DNA of 64,000 bases, taken from positions 1,455,418 to 1,519,417 of the forward strand of contig NC_057737.1 in assembly GCF_004010195.1 (NCBI RefSeq). Direction: 5' to 3'. Below the pieces are notes generated by a model, which had not been told where the DNA came from, ran no database searches, and saw nothing but the letters and a program-made list of their open reading frames with translations. Position 1 is the stretch's first letter. Every line of letters starts with the position of its first letter. Origin of the DNA: Chiloscyllium plagiosum. Lineage: Eukaryota. Made by a program: the position numbers and the translations under genes. Shown here piece after piece: positions 11,465 through 62,135 of this stretch.

Positions 11465-11810
11465 ATGGGTTTCTCAGAGTCCCCCGTTGGGGTGCCCAAT
11501 CTGACCATTGGTCCATTCGATGGCCCTCAGTGGCCACATATTGCCCCGCGGGGCACCTATGTGACGGTGGCCATTCTGATGGGCACTGTGGTCATCCTAG
11601 CCTCCTTCATGAATGGGATGGTCATCCTGGTCTCGGTCAGGTACAAGAGGCTCCGCTCCCCCCTCAACTACATCCTGGTCAACCTGGCCATGGCAGACCT
11701 GATGGTCACCTTCTTTGGCAGCACCATCAGTTTCTCCAACAACATCAATGGATACTTCACTCTGGGGCAAGCTATGTGTCAGTTCGAGGGTTTCATGGTG
11801 TCTCTAACAG
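11465..11810 (+). CDS. OPNP: Pinopsin exon 1 (N-terminus to start of TM3)
   Basis: MGFSES...GPFDGPQWPHIAP...YKRLRSPLNYILVNLAMADL...CQFEGFMVSLTG; C110/E113 equivalents present; GT donor at 11811, phase 1. Confidence 0.93.
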
Positions 11811-11849
11811 GTGGGTCTTCCCTCAATTTCTCCCCAGGATTCTCCTGAT

Positions 11850-12830
11850 ATTTCCGCTCTCTCCCCCACCTTCCCTGCAAACACCCCCCCACCTCCCTTC
11901 CCTCCATCCCCCAACCCATGACCACCTCCTGAAAATTACTTTGCTCTGGATTCTGCTACCCTCAATCTTGGAGAGGGGAGCTTGGTTTTCTGGAGTTGGC
12001 ACGATCAATGGTCTGTACCAAGAGCGTCAGGAACACTGCTCCTTCATTCATGCAACCCCAAACAGCCCGCTTGTACCTCCTTCCCAATCCCACCGACAGG
12101 TCTGCCCAGACAGACACATTGTTTCTGCCTGCTCCTGCCCCACAGAACTAATCTCTTCCTATTTCATTTTGATCTTTTCTCTCCTCATCCTGTCCTCTCC
12201 CACTTACACCTACAATTCCTATGACACTTTATATCAGTTTCAGAATTTCCAGTTTGCAGGCTCCAGCTGCATCCTCTTTAACATGGATGTGCAATTCCTT
12301 TATACACCCCCCCCCCAACCAGGATGGTCTTCGGGCTGTATGCTTCTTTCCAGATATGAGGCCTAAACTGCTCCTATCAAGCACCACCCTCCTTCACCTG
12401 GCGGAGTTCATCCTCACCCTGAACAACTTCTGGCTTCCCTCATTTTCTTCAGGTCAAAGGGATAGCTACGTGTACCCTCATGGGTCCCAGTTATGCTTAT
12501 CTCTTTGTAGAGGTATGTGGAACATTCCTTGTTCCAGTCCGATTCCAGCTCCCACCCAGAAGTCTTTCTCTGGTATATCAATGACATCATCAGTGCTGCC
12601 TCTCTCTCTCATCTGGAATTGGAAAAGTTTATCTGGTTTCTGGTTCACCCTGCTCTCACCCTTATCTCTGATATCTCCCCTCCCTTCATCGACACCTCTG
12701 CTTCCATTTCTGGGGATAGGCTGGCCACCAATATCCATGACAAACTCACTGACCCCCACAGTGACCTGGCCTATACATGCTCACACCCTGCTCCCTGTGA
12801 TTACTCCATTCCGTTCTCCCAGCTTCTCAA
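11850..12830 (+). mobile_element. Decayed Penelope-like RT remnant in pinopsin intron 1
   Basis: Eroded MGPSYACLFV, WYINDI (RYIDD) and KLTDPHSDL (KPTDSHSYL) motifs, with frameshifts. Confidence 0.65.
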
Positions 12831-13016
12831 ATTCATCCCAGCTGCACAAACTGAGCTCACTGCCCACTCACAGGGTGGGGTGAGACTGGCAGCAGCTATG
12901 GGGTTAGACTGCTCCTAGTGGGCACTCCCTCTGGCCAGGCTCTCGGGGTGGCACAGGCGAGGGAGGCAGAGTTGAAAGGGGAGCAGCTCAGTTGTCTTGT
13001 TTGTTGTTTCTGACAG

Positions 13017-13199
13017 GTATTGTGGGGCTGTGGTCGCTGGCTATCTTGGCTTTCGAACGCTACATCATCATTTGCAAACCGATGGGCGATTTCCGCTTCC
13101 AACAGAGGCATGCAGTGTGGGGCTGTCTGTTCACTTGGATCTGGGCTTTGGTGTGGACTATGCCCCCTCTCTTGGGTTGGAGTAGTTATGTACCTGAGG
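13017..13199 (+). CDS. OPNP: Pinopsin exon 2
   Basis: AG|[28 protein letters not shown]...GWSSYVPEG|GT. It is 183 nt, i.e. 14 nt longer than the 169-nt exon 2 of rod/cone opsins; this shifted second intron is characteristic of pinopsin. Confidence 0.95.
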
Positions 13200-13274
13200 G
13201 TAAGACAATGTGCACGCAAATATTCTGAACATACAGCCACCTCAAACACAACTGTCAAAACGTGACATTTATTG

Positions 13275-13785
13275 GAGACAGTTCTGGTCACCTCACTACC
13301 AGGAGGATGTGGAGCCTTTGGAGAGGGAACAGAAACGATTTATCAGGATGTTGCCTGGTTCGGAGGGGATTAGCCAAGAGGAAAGATTGGACAAAGTTGG
13401 TTTGTTTTTCACTTGAACGAAGGATGAGGAGTGACCTGACAGAAGTTTATAAAATGACAGGTGTGGACAGTCACAGTATTTTTCCCTAGGGTAGAAATGT
13501 CAATTATTAGGGTCATAGAAGGAGGTGAGTTGAGAGGAGATGTGAGAGGTCACCGAGGGTAGTGAGCGCCTGGAAGGTGCTGTGATAAGAGGTGTTGGAA
13601 GCTGATACAACAGCAACGTTGAAAAGCTATCTTGACAGATATGTGACCGGGCAGAGAATTGAGGAATATGGACCAGATTGAGGTTTAAGGTGCTTAGTTT
13701 GGAAAAGGTATCAAGAATTGAGCCAGGACTGATGGGCTGAAGGGCCTGTTCCTGTGCTGGACTACTCTTTGTTCTTTATGTTACA
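13275..13785 (+). mobile_element. CR1 LINE 3' fragment
   Basis: QFWSPHYQEDVEPLERE..RFIRMLPG motif and CR1 3' UTR tail. Confidence 0.8.
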
Positions 13786-14514
13786 AAAAGAGACTAGGAG
13801 CAGCAGGAGGCCATTCAGCCCCTTGCTGTACTGTCCAATAAGATCACGGTTGACCTTTGACCTCAGCTCCACCTACCCACCCTCCCCTCATATTCCCTTT
13901 CTCCAATGATTGAACCATCTCAGTCTGGAATGGACTCTCAGCTCGAGCATGGGATAGAGAATCATCAATAACTTCCAACACAGAAACAGACCATCTGCTC
14001 CACACAGGCCTGGTCCCAGCCTCTCTCCCTCTCACCCAACCATTCTGTTCCTTTCTCCCTCGTGTGTTTCATGTGTTGACTCAATCGTGTCATAACTCGA
14101 ACCTCTCCCTGCACATCTGAGTTTCACAATGTCAACGCTCTTTGCTGAAGGAGTTTTTCCTGAATTGCTGATTGCCTGTTTGTCTTTAGCTTATATTTGT
14201 GACCCAGTATCTCCTCAGCAATTAGCTTATATTTGTGACCCAGTATCTCCTCAGCAACTGTTATCATTTTAAAGACCTTGATCTTCCCTGTCCCAGGAAA
14301 ACGATCCTGGTCTCTTTAACTTCTCCTGAGAGACAGAAAACCCCTCCGTTCCAGTGTCACCCGAGTGAATCATTTCTGTCCCTTCTCCAGTTCTTCCCAT
14401 TCCCTCAGGATTTCTGCAAGAATCCCGTCAGAGACCCATGGGATGAGCCTTTGCTCCTGAAGAATATTTCTCTGAGGGTGAGATTGGTGTTTCTCCCTCC
14501 CCTTTATATTTACA

Positions 14515-14810
14515 CTCAGTGGGTTACACTCCAGTTCTGAGTCGGAAGTTGTGATTCAGGACGCCTTTGATGATTTAAGCTCATGGCCCAGGCAACCCCA
14601 GCAAGTGCAGTACCGAGGGAGTGTTGCCCTGTTGGAACAGGGAGTTTAAAGGAGACATGTGTTCCCCGCTCTCGGAGATGGGAAAGATTCCAAGGCATTA
14701 TTCTGAAGAGGATCGAGTGATCTCCCCGGTGTCCTCGCCAATATTTATTCCGCAAGATCATAACATAATCGACATCCCCAGTTTTAAATTGTTGGTCCCT
14801 GGAGTTTGCT
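14515..14810 (+). mobile_element. Deu-domain SINE remnant
   Basis: GCAGTACCGAGGGAGTG and GTGTCCTCGCCAATATTTATTCC resemble the DeuSINE core; tRNA-like head. Confidence 0.55.
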
Positions 14811-14849
14811 ATGATTATGGTTACTCTTGATGGGCCAGAATTCTGCTCA

Positions 14850-15905
14850 TTTTCCCAATCTCTGCCCTCCAGTCCCGGTAACATCCTCAGAAACATTTTC
14901 TGCAGCTTTTCCAATTTAATAATATCCTTCCCGTAGGAAGCTGCCCTCCTTCAGGACATTGCAAAGAGTCTGTATCTGTGACAAACTGCATTGCACACTC
15001 ACACTGTGTACTTCCAATGTAGTCATAGAGTGATAGAGCACAGAGACAGACCCTTCCATCCAACTCATCCATGCTGACTCGGTTTCCCAAACCAATCTAG
15101 TCCCACCTGCCTGCATTTGGCCCATATCCCTCTAAACCTTTCCTGTTCATGTACCTGTCCAAATGTCTTTTAAATGTTGTAACTATATTTGCATCTATCA
15201 CTTCTTCTGGCAGCTCATTCCACATAAAAGCCACCCTCGGTGTTAAAAAGTTACCCCTTGGGTCCCTTTTATATCTTTCTCCTCTCACCTTAAACCTATA
15301 CCCTCTTGTTCTGGACTCCCCCCACCCTGGGAAGAAAAAGCTATTTGCTATTTCATCTTATCTCTGTGCCCTTCATGATTTTATGAACGTCTATAAAGGT
15401 CACACCTCACTCTCCTACGCTCTGGTGAAAAAAGTCCCAGCCTAACCAGCCTCTCCTTATAATTCAAACCCTCCATTCCCAGGAACATCTTCATGAATCT
15501 TTTCTGAACCCTCTCCAGTTTAATAATATCCTTTCTATAACAGGGTGACTAGAACTACACACAATACTCCAGAAGAGGGCGGCACAGTGGCTCAGTGGTT
15601 AGCATTGTTGCCTCACAGCACCAGGGACCCAGGTTCAATTCCTACAATCCAATGATGTGCAGGTTAGGAGAACTGCCTGTGCTAAGTTACCCATAGTGTT
15701 CAGGGATGTGCAGGTTAGGAGAACTGCCTGTGCTAAGTTACTCAAAGTGTTCAGGGATGTGCAGGATGGGTGCATTAGTCAGGAGTAAAATGTAAAGAGA
15801 TAGGGTAGGGTCTGGGTGGGTTGCTCTTTGGAGAGTCAAAGGGCCTGTGTCCACACTGTAGGGATTCTAAGAGGCCTCACCAACATCCTATACAACCTCA
15901 ACATG
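14850..15905 (-). mobile_element. CR1 3' fragments with nested V-SINE (+, ~15578-15870)
   Basis: RGERYKRDPRGNF..RV..WNELP motif and CR1 tail; SINE head at 15578. Confidence 0.8.
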
Positions 15906-16214
15906 TACCTCCTGTACACCCCAGCTCCTGAATGGACAATTTTCCACATTTTCAGTCGAAGGCTGTGGTCACACAGCGTGCTTTTAGCGTATACTTTGTG
16001 TAATTGCAGTATGTACTCAGACTGTGTACACTGAACTCTGTGCCTGTACTGTGTATTGATTGTGTGTGCCCGTGCTGTGTCCATTTACCCACATTGACTA
16101 TGTATGTGTCTGTATTGAGTACAGACTGTATGTGCCTGTACTGTATACTGACTGAACTCTGTGCCTGTATTGTGACAGGTCAATTATTAAAACTGTCTCT
16201 TTTCTGGGCATTAG

Positions 16215-16360
16215 GTTTACGAACGTCTTGTGGCCCGAACTGGTACACGGGAGGGAGTAACAACAACAGTTATGTGGTTGCACTCCTTGTCACCTGCTTC
16301 ATGATGCCCCTCAGTTTGATTGTGTTCTCCTATGTCAGTCTGTTGGTGGTTCTCCGAGCT
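16215..16360 (+). CDS. OPNP: Pinopsin exon 3
   Basis: TTAG|(G)LRTSCGPNWYTGGSNNNSY...FSYVSLLVVLRA|GTGAGT; C187 and P189 present; phases consistent with exons 2 and 4. Confidence 0.95.
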
Positions 16361-16987
16361 GTGAGTATGGGGTGAGGGAGGGAGGGGAGGGGAGGCTGGG
16401 CATTGTTACTGCTCTGTTTGTCCACCCTCTACACCCCCCTCCCCCACTTGGTCACTTGCTCAGCTCCTAGTCCTGGCATATCTCAACATGGAATGGGGGA
16501 GGAGGTCATTGCTCTCACCCCGCTCCCTCCATGGAACTACCACTTATAGTCATAGAGGAACAGAAGTAGGCCATTCAGCCCCTCGAGCCTGACCTGGGAC
16601 CTAACTCCATACACTCACCTTTCATCCATATCCCTCGGTATCTTTGCACAACAGAAGTTCACCTCCACTTTAAAATTAACATTTAAAATTAACTGCTGTT
16701 TGTAGAAGAGAGTTCCAAACCTCCCTCACTCTCTGTGTGTCAAAGTGTGCACTCCCCTCCCCCAGTCGCCTCCTGCCACTCTGTCCCACACCAGCAGCAG
16801 ATGGATTCCCTGGAAGGAGGCGTATTCAGTCAGTGGGGATGGCACAGCCCCTTCATGACCTCATCACTCTCTTAGACCCATCTAGTTCGTTCAGGTTCCT
16901 CGCACAGATCTGCAGCACAGGCCTGGTCATATGTGACTCCAGTCCGCCACTGGCTGCTTCCTCCTATCCCATTGCTGTACAACATTC

Positions 16988-17138
16988 GATGGGGACAGTG
17001 TAGAGGAAGCTTTACTCTGTATCTAACCCCGTGCTATTCCTGTCCTGGGAATGTTTGATGGGGACAGTGTAGAGGGAGCTTTACTCTGTATCTAACCCCG
17101 TGCTGTCCCTGTCCTGGGCGTGTTTGATGGGGACAGTG
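16988..17138. repeat. ~69-bp tandem repeat, ~2.2 copies
   Basis: GATGGGGACAGTGTAGAGG(A/G)AGCTTTACTCTGTATCTAACCCCGTGCT...GTCCTGGG repeated. Confidence 0.8.
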
Positions 17139-17139
17139 C

Positions 17140-18185
17140 CTATTTCTCTCATCTTGATGAATTTCATGTCTTTGAGAAGATTCTGGAAGGTGTCAATGAA
17201 CAGTTTCAGAAGGATAGGCAGGTGGGAGATGGAGGAAGTGCTGTTTTGTGGGTGTAGGAGGAGATCAGCGCTGCGATGAGAAATAATATCAGCACTGGGG
17301 ATTGGGACATGGAATCAGACTGGATAGAAATTAGAAATGGCAAGGGGAAGAAATCCTGGGTGGAAGTAATTGAAAGGAATGACAAATATCAGGAGGTGAT
17401 TTTCACATGCATAAGGACTAGATAAGTCCAATAAACCTTGAGGGAGACTTCACTGAATATTTCAGCGTTTGGTTCCACAACATTCTGCTCCAAGAATCAG
17501 GAAGCAGGTTATTCTGGATTTGAAATGATGCAATGAGGTGGGATTAATCAATGATCTCAGAGTGAGGGATCCTCAAGGGAAGAGCGATCACAACATGCTA
17601 GAATTTCAGTTGGAGGGAGAGAAACTGGAGACCCACACTAGTGTTCTAGAGTTAAACAACGCTACTTAAATTGACATGAAGTCAGATCTGGGCCGGAAAG
17701 CTGGGCAGGTGATGGGCAATGGGAGAGGTTTAAGGAGAATGTCACTTGCTCCCAACTAAAATATATTCCAGAGAGGAAGCAAGATTGTAAGAGAGATGAA
17801 ACAAAACACATCCATAGCTAAGCAAAGAAATTAAAGATGATATACAGACAAAAACAATTGCACCTTACTGCAGAGGTGAGGGTAGGCAGGAAAACTGGGA
17901 CCAGCAAAGAGTGGGGCAACAAAGAGGTTTAGCATTATGGGGGTTTGGGGGGAGGGGGTCGTAGATTTAAAACTGAGAAGGAATTACTTTTCTCAGGGCC
18001 ACCTGTGCTTCACTCCCTGAGTACGGTGGATCCTGGGATATCGAGTAAGTTCAGGAAGGAGATAGACAGATTTTTAAGGAGTAATGGGAGGAAGGTGGAG
18101 TTGAGGTGCAGATGAGATCAGCCATGATGGTATTAAATGGTGGAACAGGCTCAAGGGGCTGAATGGCCTCCTCCTGTTCCTAATG
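17140..18185 (+). mobile_element. Old CR1 remnant ending at the pinopsin exon 4 acceptor
   Basis: Eroded endonuclease-region sequence, then CR1 3' tail GATCAGCCATGAT...GAATGGCCTCCTCCTGTTCCTA. Confidence 0.7.
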
Positions 18186-18205
18186 TTCACTGCTTCCTTC
18201 CGCAG

Positions 18206-18445
18206 GTTGCTCAGCAACAGAAGGAGTGTCAGACGACACAGCGAGCAGAACGAGAGGTGACCCGTATGGTGGTCGTCATGGTGATGGCGTTTTTGATCTG
18301 CTGGCTTCCTTATACAACCTTTGCCCTAGTTGTTGCTGTGGATAAGGACATTGTGATTTACCCCACCTTGGCCTCCATGCCATCCTATTTCTCAAAGACC
18401 GCCACCGTCTACAACCCCATCATCTACGTCTTCATGAATAAACAG
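18206..18445 (+). CDS. OPNP: Pinopsin exon 4 (TM6-TM7)
   Basis: CAG|VAQQQKECQTTQRAEREVTRMV...WLPYTTFA...SYFSKTATVYNPIIYVFMNKQ|GT; 240 nt; retinal-binding K296 and NPxxY present. Confidence 0.95.
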
Positions 18446-18467
18446 GTAGGAGCAACTCTTTCACTCA

Positions 18468-19252: not shown

Positions 19253-19752
19253 NNNNNNNNNNNNNNNNNNNNNNNNNNNNNNNNNNNNNNNNNNNNNNNN
19301 NNNNNNNNNNNNNNNNNNNNNNNNNNNNNNNNNNNNNNNNNNNNNNNNNNNNNNNNNNNNNNNNNNNNNNNNNNNNNNNNNNNNNNNNNNNNNNNNNNNN
19401 NNNNNNNNNNNNNNNNNNNNNNNNNNNNNNNNNNNNNNNNNNNNNNNNNNNNNNNNNNNNNNNNNNNNNNNNNNNNNNNNNNNNNNNNNNNNNNNNNNNN
19501 NNNNNNNNNNNNNNNNNNNNNNNNNNNNNNNNNNNNNNNNNNNNNNNNNNNNNNNNNNNNNNNNNNNNNNNNNNNNNNNNNNNNNNNNNNNNNNNNNNNN
19601 NNNNNNNNNNNNNNNNNNNNNNNNNNNNNNNNNNNNNNNNNNNNNNNNNNNNNNNNNNNNNNNNNNNNNNNNNNNNNNNNNNNNNNNNNNNNNNNNNNNN
19701 NNNNNNNNNNNNNNNNNNNNNNNNNNNNNNNNNNNNNNNNNNNNNNNNNNNN
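19253..19752. other. Assembly gap, exactly 500 N (probably an arbitrary-size scaffold join)
   Basis: N run; round length identical to the gap at 49399-49898. Confidence 0.95.
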
Positions 19753-19794
19753 TTGGGAGGACACAGGTTAAGCGGCTGCCATTGGTTCTGGGCA

Positions 19795-19852
19795 GGATAT
19801 CATCATATACTGTAAGTTCACTATTCATGTACTACAGTATAGATGATGTACT
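19795..19852 (+). ncRNA. MIR144: pre-miR-144 (5p 19795-19816, 3p 19833-19852)
   Basis: GGATATCATCATATACTGTAAG and TACAGTATAGATGATGTACT match vertebrate miR-144-5p/3p; they form a hairpin with paired flanks; located downstream of and antisense to ERAL1, as in human. Confidence 0.97.
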
Positions 19853-20329
19853 ATTCAGTGCCTGTTCATACCTGAAGGAGCAGTGGGTTCAGGTCCATCA
19901 CCAGACGGAATAATCACGATGAAGGAAGTGGAAATGATCTTAGCTTTCAGCACAAGAGACAGGCACGATGTCACTAACTCTGTGCTCTGTGTTTAATGGG
20001 CCAACACATGAGGATCGACAGCTTCCCAAATATCAGGTTTCATTCTTTAAAAATGTTTATCCTTTGTCAGATGTCGGCGTCTCCAGTCAGACCATCATTT
20101 GGTGTTTGCCGCGGTGCTGGGCTATTTCAGAGGGTGCTCAAAACCAACACCATTGCTGTGGGCCTGGAGTGACATAGAGGCCAAACGGGGTAAAAAGGAC
20201 AGACTTCCTTCCCGAAAGGAGATGGATTTGACAGCGATTAGTGATAGTTATCATGGTCACCATGGTCTGGTTCACCATTCAAGATTTTATTTATTGAATT
20301 TAAATAGCATCAGGTTCCAGACTGATTAG

Positions 20330-20657
20330 CACCAACCCTGACTCCCCCAACTCACCCATCAACCCCGACTCCCCAACCCAGACTCCTCCAACCCCACCAC
20401 ATCAAACCTGACACCCTCAACTCCCCCAACTCCAACTCCCCCACCCATCCTCTCCCATCTCTACCTCCCTAACCCCTCCCAAACCCAACTCTTCCACCCC
20501 AAACCCTCCCATCTCCAACTCCCCCACCCATCCTCTCCCACCTCTACCTCCNNNNNNNNNNNNNNNNNNNNNNNNNNNNNNNNNNNNNNNNNNNNNNNNN
20601 NNNNNNNNNNNNNNCCTCCCCCACTCCCACCTCCTCCCCAACCCCTCCCCCTTCCCC
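20330..20657. repeat. C-rich low-complexity repeat containing a 63-N gap (20552-20614)
   Basis: Repeated CTCCCCCAAC / CCCACCCATCCTCTCCCA units. Confidence 0.8.
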
Positions 20658-21051
20658 ACTCCCACCTCCTCCTCCTTGTTGATTGTTCATCTGGTTCACT
20701 AATGCCCTTTAGGGAGGAAACTGCCAACTTTATCTGGTCTGGCCTCTATGTGACACCCGACCCACAGCAGTGGGGTTGACTCCCATCTGCCCAATAAATG
20801 CTGACCCAGCCCGTGACCCCCTCATCCCATGAATCAATAAAGGAAGGAAGTTGTTGAGTCACAGAGATGGACATGCGGCTGACCCTGTGGTTGGAATGTG
20901 CAGACCGTCCAATCGTGGCCAATCCCTCACTCCCCTGTGAGTCTCTGCTGCTCAGAGTTTGCCATGAAACCCCTTTCATTTCCCCTCCCCCTCCCTCTCG
21001 CTGTGCCCGTGCCCAGGAAGGATGGCCGAACGGGGAAGGGGGGTGTCGGTT

Positions 21052-21092
21052 AAACCGTTACCATTACTTGTTTAAGTACTGGTAAAGGTTGT
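21052..21092 (+). ncRNA. MIR451: pre-miR-451 copy A
   Basis: AAACCGTTACCATTACT (nt 1-17 identical to miR-451) in a short 41-nt hairpin with a 4-nt loop: AAACCGTTACCATTACTTGTTTAAGTACTGGTAAAGGTTGT; lower stem formed by GGGGGTGTCGGTT / ACTGCTGCTCCC. Confidence 0.93.
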
Positions 21093-23080
21093 ACTGCTGC
21101 TCCCAAACTCATCTCAGCTGCTGCACAGACCGGGAGGGGAGGAGGACTGCCAGACCTGAAACCTTAACTCTGCTTTCTCTCCACAGATGCTGACAGAGCT
21201 GCTGAGATTTTCCAGCAATTTGTGCTCCTGATTTCCAGCATCCGCAGTTCTTTTCTACTGAAGGTTTGTATCTGGACTGGATGTTAATCCAACTGCCTCA
21301 GCAACCTCTCCCTGCTCACCACCCTGCCTGGCTGTTACTGCGAACAGCAGCCCAATGGGTCAGGCCTGCTCCCTCCTCTCTCTCCAGCCTGCTGCCCCTG
21401 GGCATGTACCTCACTTTGTGCAGCTGTTGGCCAGGACACTGCCCTGAATCGACTGCTCATTGCCGGGGGAGGGGATAAGAGAACGAGTGTTTCCAGTGGG
21501 TTATCCACTGGCCGTGTAAAATAACGATGGTGTTGCTCCCTGCCCAAGGTGCCGTGGGAATGAAGGACCCTCAGAGATGAGTCCACCAGGAACACTGGTC
21601 ACAGACAAGGACTAGTGATGAGCAGTGCGGCTGAGAGTCGTGGGCAGGAGGTTGGAAGGGAAGCAGAAAGCAATTCAGTCCGCACTGTACGATTTCCATT
21701 TGTAAGGTTCAATGATATGTTCCTTCCCTTGGGTCAGTTCTCCTCAGTTCCTTCCTGCCTGCACTCGTTGGGTTTGAAGTCAGTGGAGCTATTTTTAAAT
21801 TCACACAGTCATCGCTCAACGGGTGGTTAGCGAATCCTTTCTGGTGAACCTCAAGCAAAGTGTACATTGTGTCGAAAGAAAGCAATGACAAGGCTGATGA
21901 TCTCACCTTGTTCTTGTANNNNNNNNNNNNNNNNNNNNNNNNNNNNNNNNNNNNNNNNNNNNNNNNNNNNNNNNNNNNNNNNNNNNNNNNNNNNNNNNNN
22001 NNNNNNNNNNNNNNNNNNNNNNNNNNNNNNNNNNNNNNNNNNNNNNNNNNNTGCCAACATGATGGCAGTCTGAGAGGGTACACTATGCACTCTTTCCTGT
22101 ACTAACTCTATACTTGAGAATAGTTGCAGCCAATCAGCTTCAAAGGAGATTTGAAAAGCTCATGTTTTGCTGTTTTTTTTCCCCCGCCTTCCTTGGATAA
22201 AATCAACTGAAAGGTTCAGGATCCATCAATGTGACTTAAGCAAAGTCAGGGCAAAGCTGCATCGAGAATGTTGTGAGGGTCTAGAGGGTGAAATGACAAG
22301 GACAGGTCACCACGATAATCTATAATCAATCAGGTGGAGAAGAGAAAGGAAGTGAACTGATCAAATTATTTTGTCAAGGGGCTCTTGTGGTGTGGTGGTA
22401 GTGACCCTACCCCAGAGCCAGGAGAGCCAGACATCTCTGAACAAATTAGGAGACGAGAAAAAGATCAGGCGACTGTTTCAGGTGACTGCAGGATCCATCA
22501 GGGCCATTCACCAGAAAGCCCTCCTGAACGGTGGGAGATTGTATCTCCCATTCTAGACTATCTTTCAATGCCTTTCACCAAGGTCATGCCTGGGGCAGAC
22601 CAGAAAGGAAATCTTCACATAAACGGAGGTGAAAGTCTGAAACCTCACCCTTAAAAACAGCCAGATGCTGGGGTTCAATTTCAACACTGATTAAAGATGG
22701 CAACACAATGGGTGAGCATGGATGAATCACCTCCTTCCCCTTGTATGGTCATTCCTTGGTGTTCCCTTCTCCAGCCGATAATGCTGTGGGAATGGGTGAA
22801 CAGTGTAAGGGAAACAGAGCAGTAATCGATTCCTGTTAGTGTGGCAAGGCCAGCACCTCCAGTGGGGTATTAACACAGACAACCAGGTGCTGGAGGTTAA
22901 AGCAGTTTCGGGAGCACCTTTCAGTGTTTGATGTAGAAAGTGTCCCTTTCACAATGGTCAATCCAGAGGCACAAATCGACTCCTGATCTGAGTTTGTGAT
23001 GCTGTCCATGCTTTTCCTTTGACCATGTGCTCACACTCAGGATGGACTGATTGGACTGTGAAGGAAGGGGGGTGTCGGTT

Positions 23081-23121
23081 AAACCGTTACCATTACTTGT
23101 TTAAGTACTGGTAAGGGTTCT
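23081..23121 (+). ncRNA. MIR451: pre-miR-451 copy B
   Basis: AAACCGTTACCATTACTTGTTTAAGTACTGGTAAGGGTTCT; the 3' arm end GGTAAGGGTTCT is the fish-type G6-G35 form. Confidence 0.95.
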
Positions 23122-23273
23122 ACTGCTGCTCCCAAACTCATCTCAGCTGCTGCACAGATGAAGACACTGAGCAGGAGAGTGGGATTAAGACTTCTCCGGT
23201 GATGAAGATAAAGATAGGTGTGGAGGATTTCCAGAGGCTCTGCTGTTGTGATTGTTACATTAAGTTTATCTCC

Positions 23274-23279
23274 AATAAA
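23274..23279 (+). terminator. Candidate poly(A) signal of the pri-miR-144/451 transcript
   Basis: AATAAA ~150 nt after the last miR-451 hairpin, followed by GT-rich sequence. Confidence 0.4.
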
Positions 23280-23593
23280 AGACATCTGCTGCTGTGCATT
23301 TGTGAAAGTAAATCCAAACATCAAAAAATTGTCCGCAGTGAGATCTGATCAAATATCACTACAGAGTATTTGTTTGTGTGAGCATGACAGAGTGCGAATG
23401 TGTGTGAGACAGTGTGTTTGTGTGCAAGTGAGAGTGACCGTGTGTGTGTGTCTGTGACGGAAAGAGTGTGTCTGAGACTCTCGAGGGAGGGTGTGTGAAT
23501 CTGAGTGAGTGTGTGTGTGTCGGTAAGGGAGGGCGTGTATGTGTCTGAGAATCTCAAGGGAGTGTGTGCGTGCACGGTGTGGTGCGTGCATGC

Positions 23594-24416
23594 GTGTTTG
23601 GTGGGTGCGTGCGTGCGTGTGTTTGGTGCGTGCGTGCGTGTGTTTGGTGCGTGCGTGCGTGTGTTTGGTGCGTGCGTGCGTGTGTTTGGTGCGTGCGTGC
23701 GTGTGTTTGGTGCGTGCGTGCGTGTGTTTGGTGCGTGCGTGCGTGTGTTTGGTGCGTGCGTGCGTGTGTTTGGTGCGTGCGTGCGTGTGTTTGGTGCGTG
23801 CGTGCGTGTGTTTGGTGCGTGCGTGCGTGTGTTTGGTGCGTGCGTGCGTGTGTTTGGTGCGTGCGTGCGTGTGTTTGGTGCGTGCGTGCGTGTGTTTGGT
23901 GCGTGCGTGCGTGTGTTTGGTGCGTGCGTGCGTGTGTTTGGTGCGTGCGTGCGTGTGTTTGGTGCGTGCGTGCGTGTGTTTGGTGCGTGCGTGCGTGTGT
24001 TTGGTGCGTGCGTGCGTGTGTTTGGTGCGTGCGTGCGTGTGTTTGGTGCGTGCGTGCGTGTGTTTGGTGCGTGCGTGCGTGTGTTTGGTGCGTGCGTGCG
24101 TGTGTTTGGTGCGTGCGTGCGTGTGTTTGGTGCGTGCGTGCGTGTGTTTGGTGCGTGCGTGCGTGTGTTTGGTGCGTGCGTGCGTGTGTTTGGTGCGTGC
24201 GTGCGTGTGTTTGGTGCGTGCGTGCGTGTGTTTGGTGCGTGCGTGCGTGTGTTTGGTGCGTGCGTGCGTGTGTTTGGTGCGTGCGTGCGTGTGTTTGGTG
24301 CGTGCGTGCGTGTGTTTGGTGCGTGCGTGCGTGTGTTTGGTGCGTGCGTGCGTGTGTTTGGTGCGTGCGTGCGTGTGTTTGGTGCGTGCGTGCGTGTGTT
24401 TGGTGCGTGCGTGCGT
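23594..24416. repeat. 21-bp minisatellite (GCGTGTGTTTGGTGCGTGCGT)n, ~38-39 near-perfect copies, within a (GT)-rich tract ~23370-24600
   Basis: Direct inspection; gives 7-aa periodicity in the ORF track. Confidence 0.95.
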
Positions 24417-24759
24417 GGCGTGCGTGTGTGTGTTTGGTGCATGTGTGTTTGGTGCGTGCGCGAGTGTGTGTTTGGTGCGTGCGTGTGTGTGTGTGTGTTT
24501 GGTGCGTGTGTGTGTTTGTGCGTTTTTGTGTTTGTGCGTGTTTGTGAGTGTGTTGTGTGTGTTTGTGAGAGTTTGAGAGAGAGAGCGAGAGAGCGAGAGA
24601 GACCAGAATAGTGAGGATATGCGGGAGAGGAAAAGCTAAATAGTCCAGGACTCATCTCACCAGAAGGTGAAACTCTGGCCTGATAGATATTAAACCAGCT
24701 CAACAGGGTGGACAGAGATTTCCATTTGGGTGACGGATCAGAAAAATAATAATCACAAA

Positions 24760-38730: not shown

Positions 38731-39101
38731 TATTCTAACACTTGCTGCCACTAGTTACATTGAGTGAAAGCTCAGAATCTTCCTCAGTGTCACCTGAGGG
38801 TGGGCAAGTAACAGGGACTTCAGTCCAAGGTCCAGTTACTCCTGTTCATTTACCACTGCCCCCATCCTGCCTTACTGAATTCTTCCCTGGTCTCCACTCT
38901 TCCTCTCCTCCTCCTTGCCATTCCACCGACAGGAACCTGTTTCAGCTGTAACATTTTCCAATCCTGATACAAGGTCATTGACCTGAAACATTAACTGTTT
39001 CATCCTTGTCTGACCTGCTAAATGTTACCAATATTTTCAGATAATATCCAGATCAAATCAAGAGCATCAAGTCTTCCTCTCAAACAGTAAGCTGTGATTA
39101 C

Positions 39102-39229
39102 CTTTCTGCGAAGCAGCTGGTTGGACAAGGTGGATTTCCCGGCATTTGGAGCCCCAATGATGGCGACTCGGAGCACACGGGGGTTTCCAGGCTGGTCTGG
39201 CTGAAGGAGCAGGAGATCATCCTGCTCAG
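39102..39229 (-). CDS. ERAL1: ERAL1 exon (G1 P-loop)
   Basis: (A)[42 protein letters not shown], 128 nt. Confidence 0.96.
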
Positions 39230-39394
39230 CTGTAGGACAGAAACACATCTTTAATCATTCAGAAAACTGAATCTTGTGAGCAGAGTGCCAGGCAGAGTCA
39301 AGAATGAATCACTGAAGAGAAATTGTTTAGGCCAATCTACAAAAGCTGCATCAGGCATTGCACCTCAATAGTCATACAGGCCTCAGAAAGGGTA

Positions 39395-59268: not shown

Positions 59269-59872
59269 TATTCCATTGGGATGATTCCATTGCACACAAA
59301 ACCAGCTCCTGATACATTCACTGATCCCAATTCCATTACAGCATTCTAACTGTTGTAAACAATGATATCTTCATCTAAACCAGATGATTCTGATGGAACT
59401 TTAAAATACAAGATTCATGATTCTTCCATTGCTCTCTGCCAATGCAACATCTTCCTGGCCCATATCTTCACTGTACAGAGACCCCCATCCTGCTGTTCCT
59501 GGCTAAACTTGGTTAACACCAGGACTGTCCGCATCCTGGAGCTGACAACTAAACAGCACAGTGGGTGTAACATCATGGCAAAGGATCGCCAACGCTTTAA
59601 AGGGCAACACCCACATATGATGAGCAAATAAAATGGAATTTCTCTGTGACACAAACAACCAATTCAAGATAAAAAGGCCTGGCTATTGGAAAGCTGCACA
59701 TTTGAAGGGTTCCTATGCAGAGGGAGGGAGGGATGAAGCAAAACAGACAAAAGATGCAGTGCAGGTCTATCCAAAACCACGGATGAAACTGCAGTGCCCG
59801 CTCATTAACGGGAGGTAGTTCAGTTTGAACTTCACTCTCTTCAAACATAATTTAAAATTCTGACTCCTACAG

Positions 59873-60144
59873 CACTTGCCTCCCTGATTCAGGGGTGCCA
59901 GGACAATGAACAGTGCAGTGCTTTCGCCAGTTTCAACACTGCAATTCTGGAGCTATTCAAGCTAACCATTGGACTGGGTGACCTGGAAGTACAGAAACAA
60001 GTAAAATACCCAGAGCTCTTCCTCTTCGTGTTGGTGTTGTATGTTGTCCTGACCTTTGTCCTCCTGTTGAACATGCTGATCGCACTGATGGGGGAGACCG
60101 TGGAGAACATTTCCAAAGAGAGTAAAAACATCTGGAAACTACAG
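59873..60144 (+). CDS. TRPV3: TRPV3-like exon (turret, pore helix, S6, TRP box)
   Basis: [38 protein letters not shown]...[32 protein letters not shown]; GLGD filter and short two-Cys turret as in TRPV3; 272 nt. Confidence 0.93.
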
Positions 60145-61189
60145 GTATCTCAAAAATGTCTGCTTCTATTATTACAACAGTTTTTCGATCAGGTGAAACT
60201 TCTCACAAACTGTTGAACTGGATGATCCTCCAGGCCCAGCCGCTGCTTTCCTGGTAACTCATTCAATTGGCCATCCCTTATTCCCCAAATCAGTCAGCTT
60301 GACAAGACCGAGAGGCCCTACACCATCTGTAAGCCCGACTGCAAACCACACACCATCCTATTAACACTGTCCTCTCACTGTCACTGGGTCAAAGTCCTGG
60401 GACATCATTCCGAGCAGCATGGCTAGTGTACCTCACCACAGGGATAGCAGTGGCTCATCACCAGACTGGACAATAATGCAGGAGCAATAAATGCCAACTT
60501 TGTCAGCAACACCTACATTCCATACAAATAAAGCCTGAAAAACTAACATTGCCTCCCCACAGTCAGCAAGCTGGGTGACCAAAGCAGAAATCCAAGTGCA
60601 ACACCCTACACTTCCAGACGTAATCAATGTCTGGACTGGGAATGGGAATGCCAGCCACATTTCCACATCTGAAATGCTAAAGCTTATAGTTTCCCTTCCA
60701 ACACCTTAACTCTGATCAGTTGGTGCTGGGACCTTCTGGTCAGTGAAAGAAGACTGAAGAGGGCTGAAGCTAATCTGTAAAGCCCTGCATCAGATCAAGC
60801 TGCATATTTCCAGAAGAGGCCATCACAGTAACTGAGAAACACTAACTGTACAGTAAAACAGAGCAAATCACCAAGGGGAGCTGTACAACCCCTGGCCTAC
60901 ATTGTCACACTATTAACTAATGAATTAAGCCATTAACAACTTTACATGACAGGACAAAAAAAAAGATTTTCTCTGACACAAAAATAACAATAACAACAAC
61001 AACTTCTGGAAACCAATTCAAAAACACCTTCTCCTTAAAATTATCCAATGCATTAAGCCAAGCGTTCTTCATTCACTCAATGTAAGCAATGATTTATTGC
61101 CCATCGCTAACTGACTTGGAGAAGCTAGTGGTTAGCTACCTTGTTGCATAGCTGCAGCCCAACTGCCAGTGCACGGTGTTGTCAGGGAG

Positions 61190-62135
61190 CTTGAACTGAA
61201 ATGAATTGAATTGAATTTATTGTCACGTGAACCGAGGCACAGTGAAAAGCTTTGTCTTGCGAGCAATACAGGCAGATCACAGAGTTAAGTAGCATAGATA
61301 AGTAAACAATTAGTAAGCAGCAAACACAAAATCACAGGTACAGATGAATGTTAAGAGTTTGTGAGTCCATTCAGTATTCTGATAACAGTAGGGTAGGAAC
61401 TGTTGTGAAACCGGCTGGTGCGTGTGTTCAGGCTTCTGTACCTTCTCCCTGATGGTAGAGGTTGTAGAAAATCATTTCCAGGGTGGGATGGATCTTTGAG
61501 AATGCTGGCGGCCTTTCCTTGACATTGGGCCTGGTAGATGGATTCTACAGATGGTAGGTTGGCCTTTGTGATTCCCCACTCTCTGTAACCATCTCCGATC
61601 TTGAATGGTACAGTAGCCATACCAGGTAGTGATACATCCGATCACAGAGTTAAGTAGCATAGATAAGTAAACAATTAGTAAGCGGCAAACACAAAATCAC
61701 AGGTACAGATGAATGTTAAGAGTTTGTGAGTCCATTCAGTATTCTGATAACAGTAGGGTAGGAACTGTTGTGAAACCGGCTGGTGTATGTGTTCAGGCTT
61801 CTGTACCTTCTCCCCAATGGTAGAGGTTGTAGAAAAGCATTTTCAGGGTGGGATGGATCTTTGAGAATGCTGGCGGCCTTTCCTTGACAGCAGGCCTGGT
61901 AGATGGATTCTACAGATGGGAGGTTGGCCTTCGTGATTCACCACTCTCTGTAACCATCTCCGATCTTGAATGGTACAGTAGCCATACCAGGTAGTGATAC
62001 ATCCGGACAGAATGCTCTCAATGGTGCACCTATCAATGTCGGCAAAGGTATTCGCTGTTATGCCAAATTCCCTCAGCTGCCTGAGGAAGAAGAGACATTG
62101 TTAGGCCTTTGTAACCAGTGCGTCCACATGAAGAC
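61190..62135 (-). mobile_element. Rex1/Babar-like LINE 3' end with ~365-bp internal tandem duplication
   Basis: CITTWYG.C...LQRV and DPSHPG..LQPLPSGRRYRSLNTRTSRF motifs; the block starting at 61275 is repeated at 61640. Confidence 0.75.

Follow-up and report, generated by a model that had tools for sequence, protein, structure and literature searches.

The window, i.e. the whole stretch of 64,000 nt of DNA from the bamboo shark Chiloscyllium plagiosum analyzed here, carries a miR-144 hairpin followed on the plus strand by two miR-451 hairpins (Table 1). Each miR-451 hairpin lies in a block of 96 nt, and the two blocks differ, exactly as a preliminary description of this DNA had stated, only at A21086/G23115 and G21091/C23120 (blastn within the window: 97.9% identity, E 2e-41). 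Copy 2 matched Rfam family RF00722 at 23066-23136 with 69.2 bits, over the gathering threshold of 66.5, and the match of copy 1 at 21037-21107 reached 65.4 bits (E 9e-14), 1.1 bits short of that threshold. A search of the window for the mature 5′ 17-mer at up to 3 mismatches gave no copy beyond these two, the only other matches being the 3′ arms of the hairpins themselves. For a relic of a second miR-144, the spacer between the copies was searched by Rfam at E 0.1 and by local alignment, excluding the 133-nt gap, and none was found; in the local alignments of the spacer to miR-144 and its surroundings, 59, 91, and 112 of 200 shuffles scored as high.

Six N gaps are present in the window. Since two of them (20552-20614 and 21919-22051) intervene, all spacings between the hairpins are scaffold estimates, gap lengths included: 1175 nt from miR-144 to copy 1 and 3204 nt from miR-144 to copy 2. 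The interval from miR-144 to copy 1 also holds two AATAAA hexamers (20793 and 20836), located within or next to a repeat. Their use would sever miR-451 from miR-144; a contig of sequencing run X1 passes through both. Directly past the candidate 3′ end of the cluster, a 21-nt GT-rich unit forms a long array (23596-24650).

Table 1. Features of the miR-144/451 locus and its neighborhood. Positions are those of the window.
Feature	Position	Strand	Remarks
miR-144 hairpin	19785..19863	+	Rfam RF00682, 73.4 bits (gathering threshold 60); canonical "helper" of the cluster
N gap between miR-144 and copy 1	20552-20614
Copy-1 upstream flank	20945..21033	+	Faint homology (~60%) to the copy-2 upstream flank
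miR-451 copy 1, 96-nt block	21034..21129	+	Includes the lower stem (21039-21051 paired with 21093-21104), the precursor, and a 3′ flank
Predicted 42-nt pre-miR-451, copy 1	21052..21093	+	G6 opposite A35, A1 opposite G40, U13 opposite C28
CNNC motif, copy 1	21110..21113	+	17 nt past the predicted precursor end in both copies
Short high-copy repeat (SINE-like)	21150..21253	+	20 nt past copy 1; breaks up the downstream flank
Assembly gap between the copies	21919..22051	.	N run; spanned by no listed contig
Copy-2 upstream flank	22980..23062	+	Faint homology to the copy-1 upstream flank
miR-451 copy 2, 96-nt block	23063..23158	+	Rfam RF00722
Predicted 42-nt pre-miR-451, copy 2	23081..23122	+	G6 opposite G35, A1 opposite C40, U13 opposite C28
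Candidate 3′ end of the primary transcript	23274..23328	+	AATAAA 23274, AGTAAA 23307, six-A run 23323-23328
ERAL1 exon (mitochondrial Era GTPase)	39093..39230	-	Convergent with the cluster; Pfam MMR_HSR1; best PDB match mitochondrial Era (E 2e-13)

For the surrounding genes, 147 of the 273 open frames of at least 70 residues in the window were scanned against Pfam. Just upstream of miR-144 lie several exons of a pinopsin gene (11498-18446, +), whose first exon (11498-11818) shows 100% identity with a pinopsin-like protein of Chiloscyllium plagiosum and 92% with that of zebra shark, in agreement with a bamboo shark as the source; the last exon of the gene may lie near or in the gap 19253-19752. 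Further downstream, a TRPV channel exon (59851-60213, +) had TRPV3 as best match (E 8e-38) followed by TRPV4 (5e-27), and a 366-nt tandem duplication with 96% identity (61275-62005) may represent either a genuine repeat or two joined haplotypes. The locus resembles the vertebrate miR-144/451 cluster (RF00682 and RF00722) in the order of the hairpins on one strand, in the short miR-451 hairpin with its 4-nt loop, and in the convergent ERAL1 gene, which we take to be the expected neighbor of miR-144/451 in other vertebrates. It is unlike that cluster in having two copies of miR-451.

Both copies in independent sequencing runs

Contigs from 8 of 24 sequencing runs were compared with the window stretch 20660-23360. 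These contigs were assembled from 31-letter words and break at the start of a repeat; none of the runs is on record as RNA, and X6 is of unrecorded kind. The repeat at 21150..21253 had a summed contig depth of 4e4 to 8e5 vs. 5-70 alongside, and it has self-matches in the window. In run X4, from another individual, the left-flank contigs stop at 21063 (copy 1) and 23092 (copy 2), each exactly 30 nt into the block. The right-flank contigs start 30 nt ahead of precursor position 35 (numbered from the 5′ A at 21052 in copy 1 and 23081 in copy 2) and run through the letters of their own copy into their own flank (21056-21181, differing only by T21112C; 23085-23360, without differences). The depths of these four flank contigs were 17.5, 17.6, 18.4, and 18.6, and that of the spacer was 17.6. 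Alleles would give split depths such as the 11.9 and 6.5 of a two-allele bubble in the spacer, which the flank contigs do not show. Contig depth, which here is that of single loci, also served as the only test for further copies elsewhere in the genome.

The same four flank contigs were obtained from run X19, which differs from the window by ~5% along the spacer (92 substitutions, ~1740 nt), with depths of 15.3, 10.7, 11.9, and 8.2. X16 (organism C) yielded both right flanks and a 92-nt contig stopping at the same 3′ edge. For X2, all flanks but one were recovered (three of four), together with a single 96-nt contig bearing the letters of copy 1 alone, for which a removed bubble may be the reason. 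X14 had no contig over either block, and X22, a raw single-cell run sampled to ~6%, contributed no reads. X14 was also considered as a second lineage and rejected: it carries the organism label of X19, but its letters match the window's organism. The label organism B covers two lineages, X14 matching the window's organism and X19 being the diverged one.

An assembly artefact, i.e. two haplotypes or a mis-join across the N gap, would fit the position of that gap between the copies, and among the listed contigs none spans it, so the adjacency of the copies rests on the scaffold. Mis-assembly has also been suspected elsewhere: in the available part of a survey covering 14 gnathostomes, this suspicion applied to the 10 tandem miRNA pairs, out of 24, whose precursors were identical (10.1101/2021.09.01.458616). 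The single copy-1 contig of X2 would be expected as well if only one locus existed, but bubble removal explains it equally. Against an artefact stand X4 and X19, both with four distinct flanks at full, equal depth and with right flanks phased with their own letters. These largely refute an artefact, which we consider barely conceivable, and they bear out the earlier view that the second copy is not an uncollapsed haplotype. The two blocks are thus, with near certainty, two separate miR-451 loci, and the 144-451-451 cluster with identical predicted mature products that had been proposed is supported by contigs of other individuals and of a diverged lineage.

Hairpin anatomy and predicted output of the two copies

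miR-451 is a model Dicer-independent microRNA and a model case of cluster assistance. In the known pathway, as set out in the available text of PMC4050365, Drosha releases a 42-nt hairpin, a cut by Ago2 opposite positions 10-11 turns it into a product of 30 nt, and PARN shortens this product to 22-26 nt; pairing opposite positions 10-11 and an unpaired 5′ nucleotide are required. The precursor length of 42 nt and the cut site used here were taken from this source. In both copies, mature positions 1-17 including the seed match the Rfam consensus, pairs 7-12 are intact, and A1 is unpaired. Positions 2-18 pair with 39-23 with two mismatches and a 4-nt loop, giving a stem of ~17 bp that is too short for Dicer, and a 13-nt 5′ lower stem is present in both. 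The copies depart from the consensus at positions 18-20, 23, 28, and 35, and unlike the consensus both have a U13:C28 mismatch and an unpaired G6. The U13:C28 mismatch (21079 and 23108) is located two pairs off the Ago2 cut site, where the consensus is paired. Both hairpins fold alike (-33.9 and -35.9 kcal/mol), and four natural-type letter combinations at positions 35 and 40 gave one structure with -33.3 to -36.5 kcal/mol, i.e. folding energy did not usefully separate the copies. Among 28 differences listed over four runs, the sole polymorphism in the blocks was T21112C (X1 and X4) at an N position of the CNNC motif.

The two differences between the copies, assigned to the 3′ arm in the preliminary description, are indeed located there, at precursor positions 35 and 40. 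Because both fall in the fragment that Ago2 would discard, the mature RNAs are predicted to be identical; targets would match, and only processing could differ. Position 35, opposite G6, is A in copy 1, G in copy 2, and C in the Rfam consensus. The two right-hand contigs of X19 begin 30 nt ahead of this position, so the copies of X19 also differ there. Copy 1 of X19 likely keeps A35, since nothing is found at 21086 among the differences listed (four of six for that contig). At position 40, copy 1 of X19 has C as have copy 2 and the consensus, and G40 of the window's copy 1 is therefore likely a later change in the window's lineage.

The difference at position 35 may tune the rate at which Argonaute slices the precursor. 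Chen, Sive and Bartel are said to have reported in 2017 that fish pre-miR-451 carries a G:G mismatch at position 6 and that G:A at this position sometimes also helps. With respect to such an enhancement of slicing, the shark cluster holds two states of the site side by side, G6 being opposite G35 in copy 2 and opposite A35 in copy 1. In the available text of PMC11100590, which cites Chen, Sive and Bartel 2017 (its ref. 48) for a position-6 mismatch raising Ago2 slicing, slicing can be enhanced by G:G at guide position 6 (one guide gained 2.4-fold), and this mismatch brings no gain where position 7 is already a weak A:U pair. As miR-451 has U7:A34, the effect of position 35 may be small.

In the proposed mechanism, a single transcript in red cells would supply both precursors, and these would give the same mature RNA. 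After Microprocessor has cut each hairpin to the 42-nt precursor, slicing by Ago2 between positions 30 and 31 and subsequent trimming would yield 22-26 nt. The short stem and the 4-nt loop, kept in both copies, make miR-451 a poor Microprocessor substrate that relies on nearby miR-144. According to the available part of PMC13686912, cluster assistance works best at 120-250 nt, persists in part at 900-1200 nt, and becomes weak or is lost at 2000-3072 nt, and the endogenous spacing in the mammalian construct is 120 nt, compared with 1175 and 3204 nt here. Both shark spacings thus lie outside the optimum, which is a property of mammalian clusters and not a rule of membership. Repeats would have pushed miR-144 to ~1.2 and ~3.2 kb from the two copies, at which its help is expected to be weak or absent; the yield per copy would be lower than that of the mammalian gene, and the second copy would make up the dose in red cells. 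From this analysis, dose is the likely benefit of a second copy. An extra dose is not assured, because a second poor hairpin can compete and lower the miR-451 yield (PMC10576077, available part).

Contig depths gave a lead on expression. In X6, depth steps up 3′-ward at each hairpin (18.8, 65-69, and 489), the pattern expected of poly(A) RNA cut at both hairpins; the kind of this run is unrecorded, and contigs cannot show RNA ends or levels. Depths in X16 were 46, 87, and 234, and X1 was without such a rise. The X6 contig ends at the A run (23328), 44 nt past AATAAA, and contigs of X16 and X14 continue past this point. The spacer is covered piecewise by runs guessed to be RNA or of unrecorded kind, and miR-144 is located outside the compared stretch. 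Among the joints listed for that stretch, no GT..AG joint was found by which splicing would bring copy 2 closer to miR-144. One X6 contig joins 21056-21114 back to 20765-21051 and stops one base before the mature 5′ end, where contigs of X2, X4, and X19 continue; it has no splice-type ends and might stem either from a chimera formed in the library or from cutting by Drosha.

These data also bear on whether only one copy works, the other being a passenger kept by conversion, either copy 2 as out of reach of miR-144 or copy 1 as drifted at position 40. The distance of 3204 nt exceeds the published range of assistance, copy 1 remains under the Rfam gathering threshold, and the hexamers at 20793 and 20836 lie between it and miR-144. 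Nevertheless, we consider a single working copy very unlikely: the hairpins fold with nearly the same energy and have seed and cut-site pairs intact, both copies persist in X19, and the X6 depth, within the limits given above, climbs at each of them.

Origin and maintenance of the duplicate

The preliminary description had held that the flanks of the two blocks do not align. This stands for the downstream side, where 14 of 16 anchored settings gave no signal vs. shuffles with the repeat in or out; in two 200-nt settings with the repeat kept, 9 and 12 of 1000 shuffles reached the score, but so did 58 and 83 of 1000 window pieces. It does not stand for the upstream side, where ~90 nt align. Anchored at the block edge, 60 of 99 columns are identical, and the similarity is above chance over 60-200 nt. 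At 90 nt, the score was matched by 0 of 1000 dinucleotide shuffles and by 1 to 5 of 1000 random window pieces; for the three remaining lengths it beat 990-998 of 1000 shuffles, and over all lengths 1 to 18 of 1000 window pieces reached it. An ungapped match of 17/22 at 20945 vs. 22980 lies near the same diagonal and was reached by 7 of 2000 controls. With harsher scoring the result was marginal, as high a score being reached by 2-7 of 150 shuffles and by 3-8 of 150 window pieces; an unanchored local alignment over 300 nt gave no significant score (37 of 300), and the length of the homology was picked after inspection. If this homology is real, the upstream flanks of the two copies have diverged by 0.56 substitutions per site vs. 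0.055 between the window and X19, i.e. ~10 times as much. At the level of sequence, the faint homology points to a duplicate that was originally longer and is older than its core, which would have been homogenised afterwards, and the earlier claim that the duplication spanned only hairpin, lower stem, and processing flank is probably wrong.

Within the block, all 54 bases outside the precursor are identical between the copies, which fits the earlier proposal that similarity was kept by selection or gene conversion. These identical bases include lower-stem letters with little conservation in the Rfam consensus as well as the 16 nt that follow the CNNC motif; identity of these 16 nt would arise by chance with a probability of 3e-4 at 60% identity. 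The block with 98% identity adjoins the upstream flank with ~60%, so that an identical tract lies within decayed homology, on the 5′ side only. We favor, at somewhat better than even chances, an old tandem duplication of at least ~190 nt, the 96-nt core of which was re-homogenised by gene conversion and then held by purifying selection.

The order of changes in the block was used for dating. Copy 2 of X19 must carry at least one change, because its contig does not break. Placed on the tree, one change precedes the split between the window and X19 and at least two follow it, although ~82% of the branch length precedes the split; a single early change has a P of 0.08 for three events and of 0.02 for four. 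One early vs. at least two late changes favors an old duplication with a conversion tract some time before the split. The changes datable to the time after the split, namely G40 of copy 1 in the window and one or more in copy 2 of X19, were not homogenised. Among the differences listed for X19, which on the copy-1 contig are four of six and include none of the copy-2 side, no lineage-private change common to both copies was seen, i.e. conversion left no direct sign there; a change at 21038 shared by both X19 copies was considered and rejected, since the distance-from-end figures indicate a longer G run in copy 1 only. For selection, copy 1 of the window and of X19 were compared: one substitution was found among the differences listed in 92 nt vs. 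4.9 expected (P 0.045), a count that draws on four of the six differences of the X19 contig and would change to P 0.28 if both others lay in the block.

A short, fairly recent templated duplication of the 96-nt segment just before the split, with identity due to youth and selection, would account for the sharp edges, for the missing clear homology downstream, and for a spacer without a relic of miR-144 or its surroundings. The 2% difference between the copies would also fit an age slightly over that of the 5% lineage split if the block is constrained. Such a duplication is rather unlikely in our view: it does not account for the collinear upstream similarity of ~90 nt in single-copy sequence (0/1000 shuffles; 17/22 ungapped, 7/2000 controls), and the copied piece would need to match the functional unit near-exactly.

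Purifying selection alone on an old duplicate, with the whole block including its 3′ tail bound by processing factors and no conversion, appears less probable still. The block does coincide with a processing unit, as lower stem, precursor, and CNNC motif span ~75 of its 96 nt; its only listed polymorphism falls at the N position of CNNC, and the position-35 difference persists in two lineages, where steady conversion would erase it. Against this, lower-stem letters that vary across vertebrates in the Rfam consensus are identical here, the 16 nt past CNNC have no known constraint, and the block did change after the lineage split. Old duplication with conversion followed by selection remains the reading that we adopt.

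Place among vertebrate microRNA duplicates

The shark pair resembles the tandem duplicates of ancestral gnathostome miRNAs in being a local second copy with a near-identical precursor. In the available part of the 14-gnathostome survey, such pairs are rare, none is common to taxa, many are likely false, and the elephant shark is the only cartilaginous fish (10.1101/2021.09.01.458616). Unlike the survey pairs, the pair described here is backed by reads and common to related lineages; as the 14 taxa of the survey are far more distant, there is no contradiction unless the pair extends across sharks. In the literature searched, we found no report of a shark miR-451 duplicate; the per-species tables of the survey and MirGeneDB, which covers two cartilaginous fish (PMC8728216, available part), may already list one, and the available part of 10.1101/2022.11.23.517662 holds nothing on this locus. 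The locus is set apart by a second, read-backed miR-451 copy in a known cluster, by atypical distances to miR-144, and by a difference between the copies at a site with an established bearing on slicing.

The duplicate adds no new target set and no new pathway. As a read-backed second copy in a shark, it departs from the general pattern that ancient vertebrate microRNAs rarely have tandem duplicates. Since the discarded arm alone distinguishes the copies, precursor and 3′-fragment reads can be assigned to each copy, which allows an in vivo test of the distance to miR-144 (1.2 vs. 3.2 kb) and of the position-6 mismatch (A vs. G). A bolder reading, to which we give little credence, is that the duplication is ancient across sharks and perhaps rays, that conversion has kept the copies alike except at position 35, where selection would hold both a G:A and a G:G form of the Ago2 slicing switch, and that processing at 1-3 kb from miR-144 would proceed largely without the cluster assistance that mammals need. 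If true, nature would have set up at this locus an experiment on Dicer-independent microRNA biogenesis, with two alleles and two distances.
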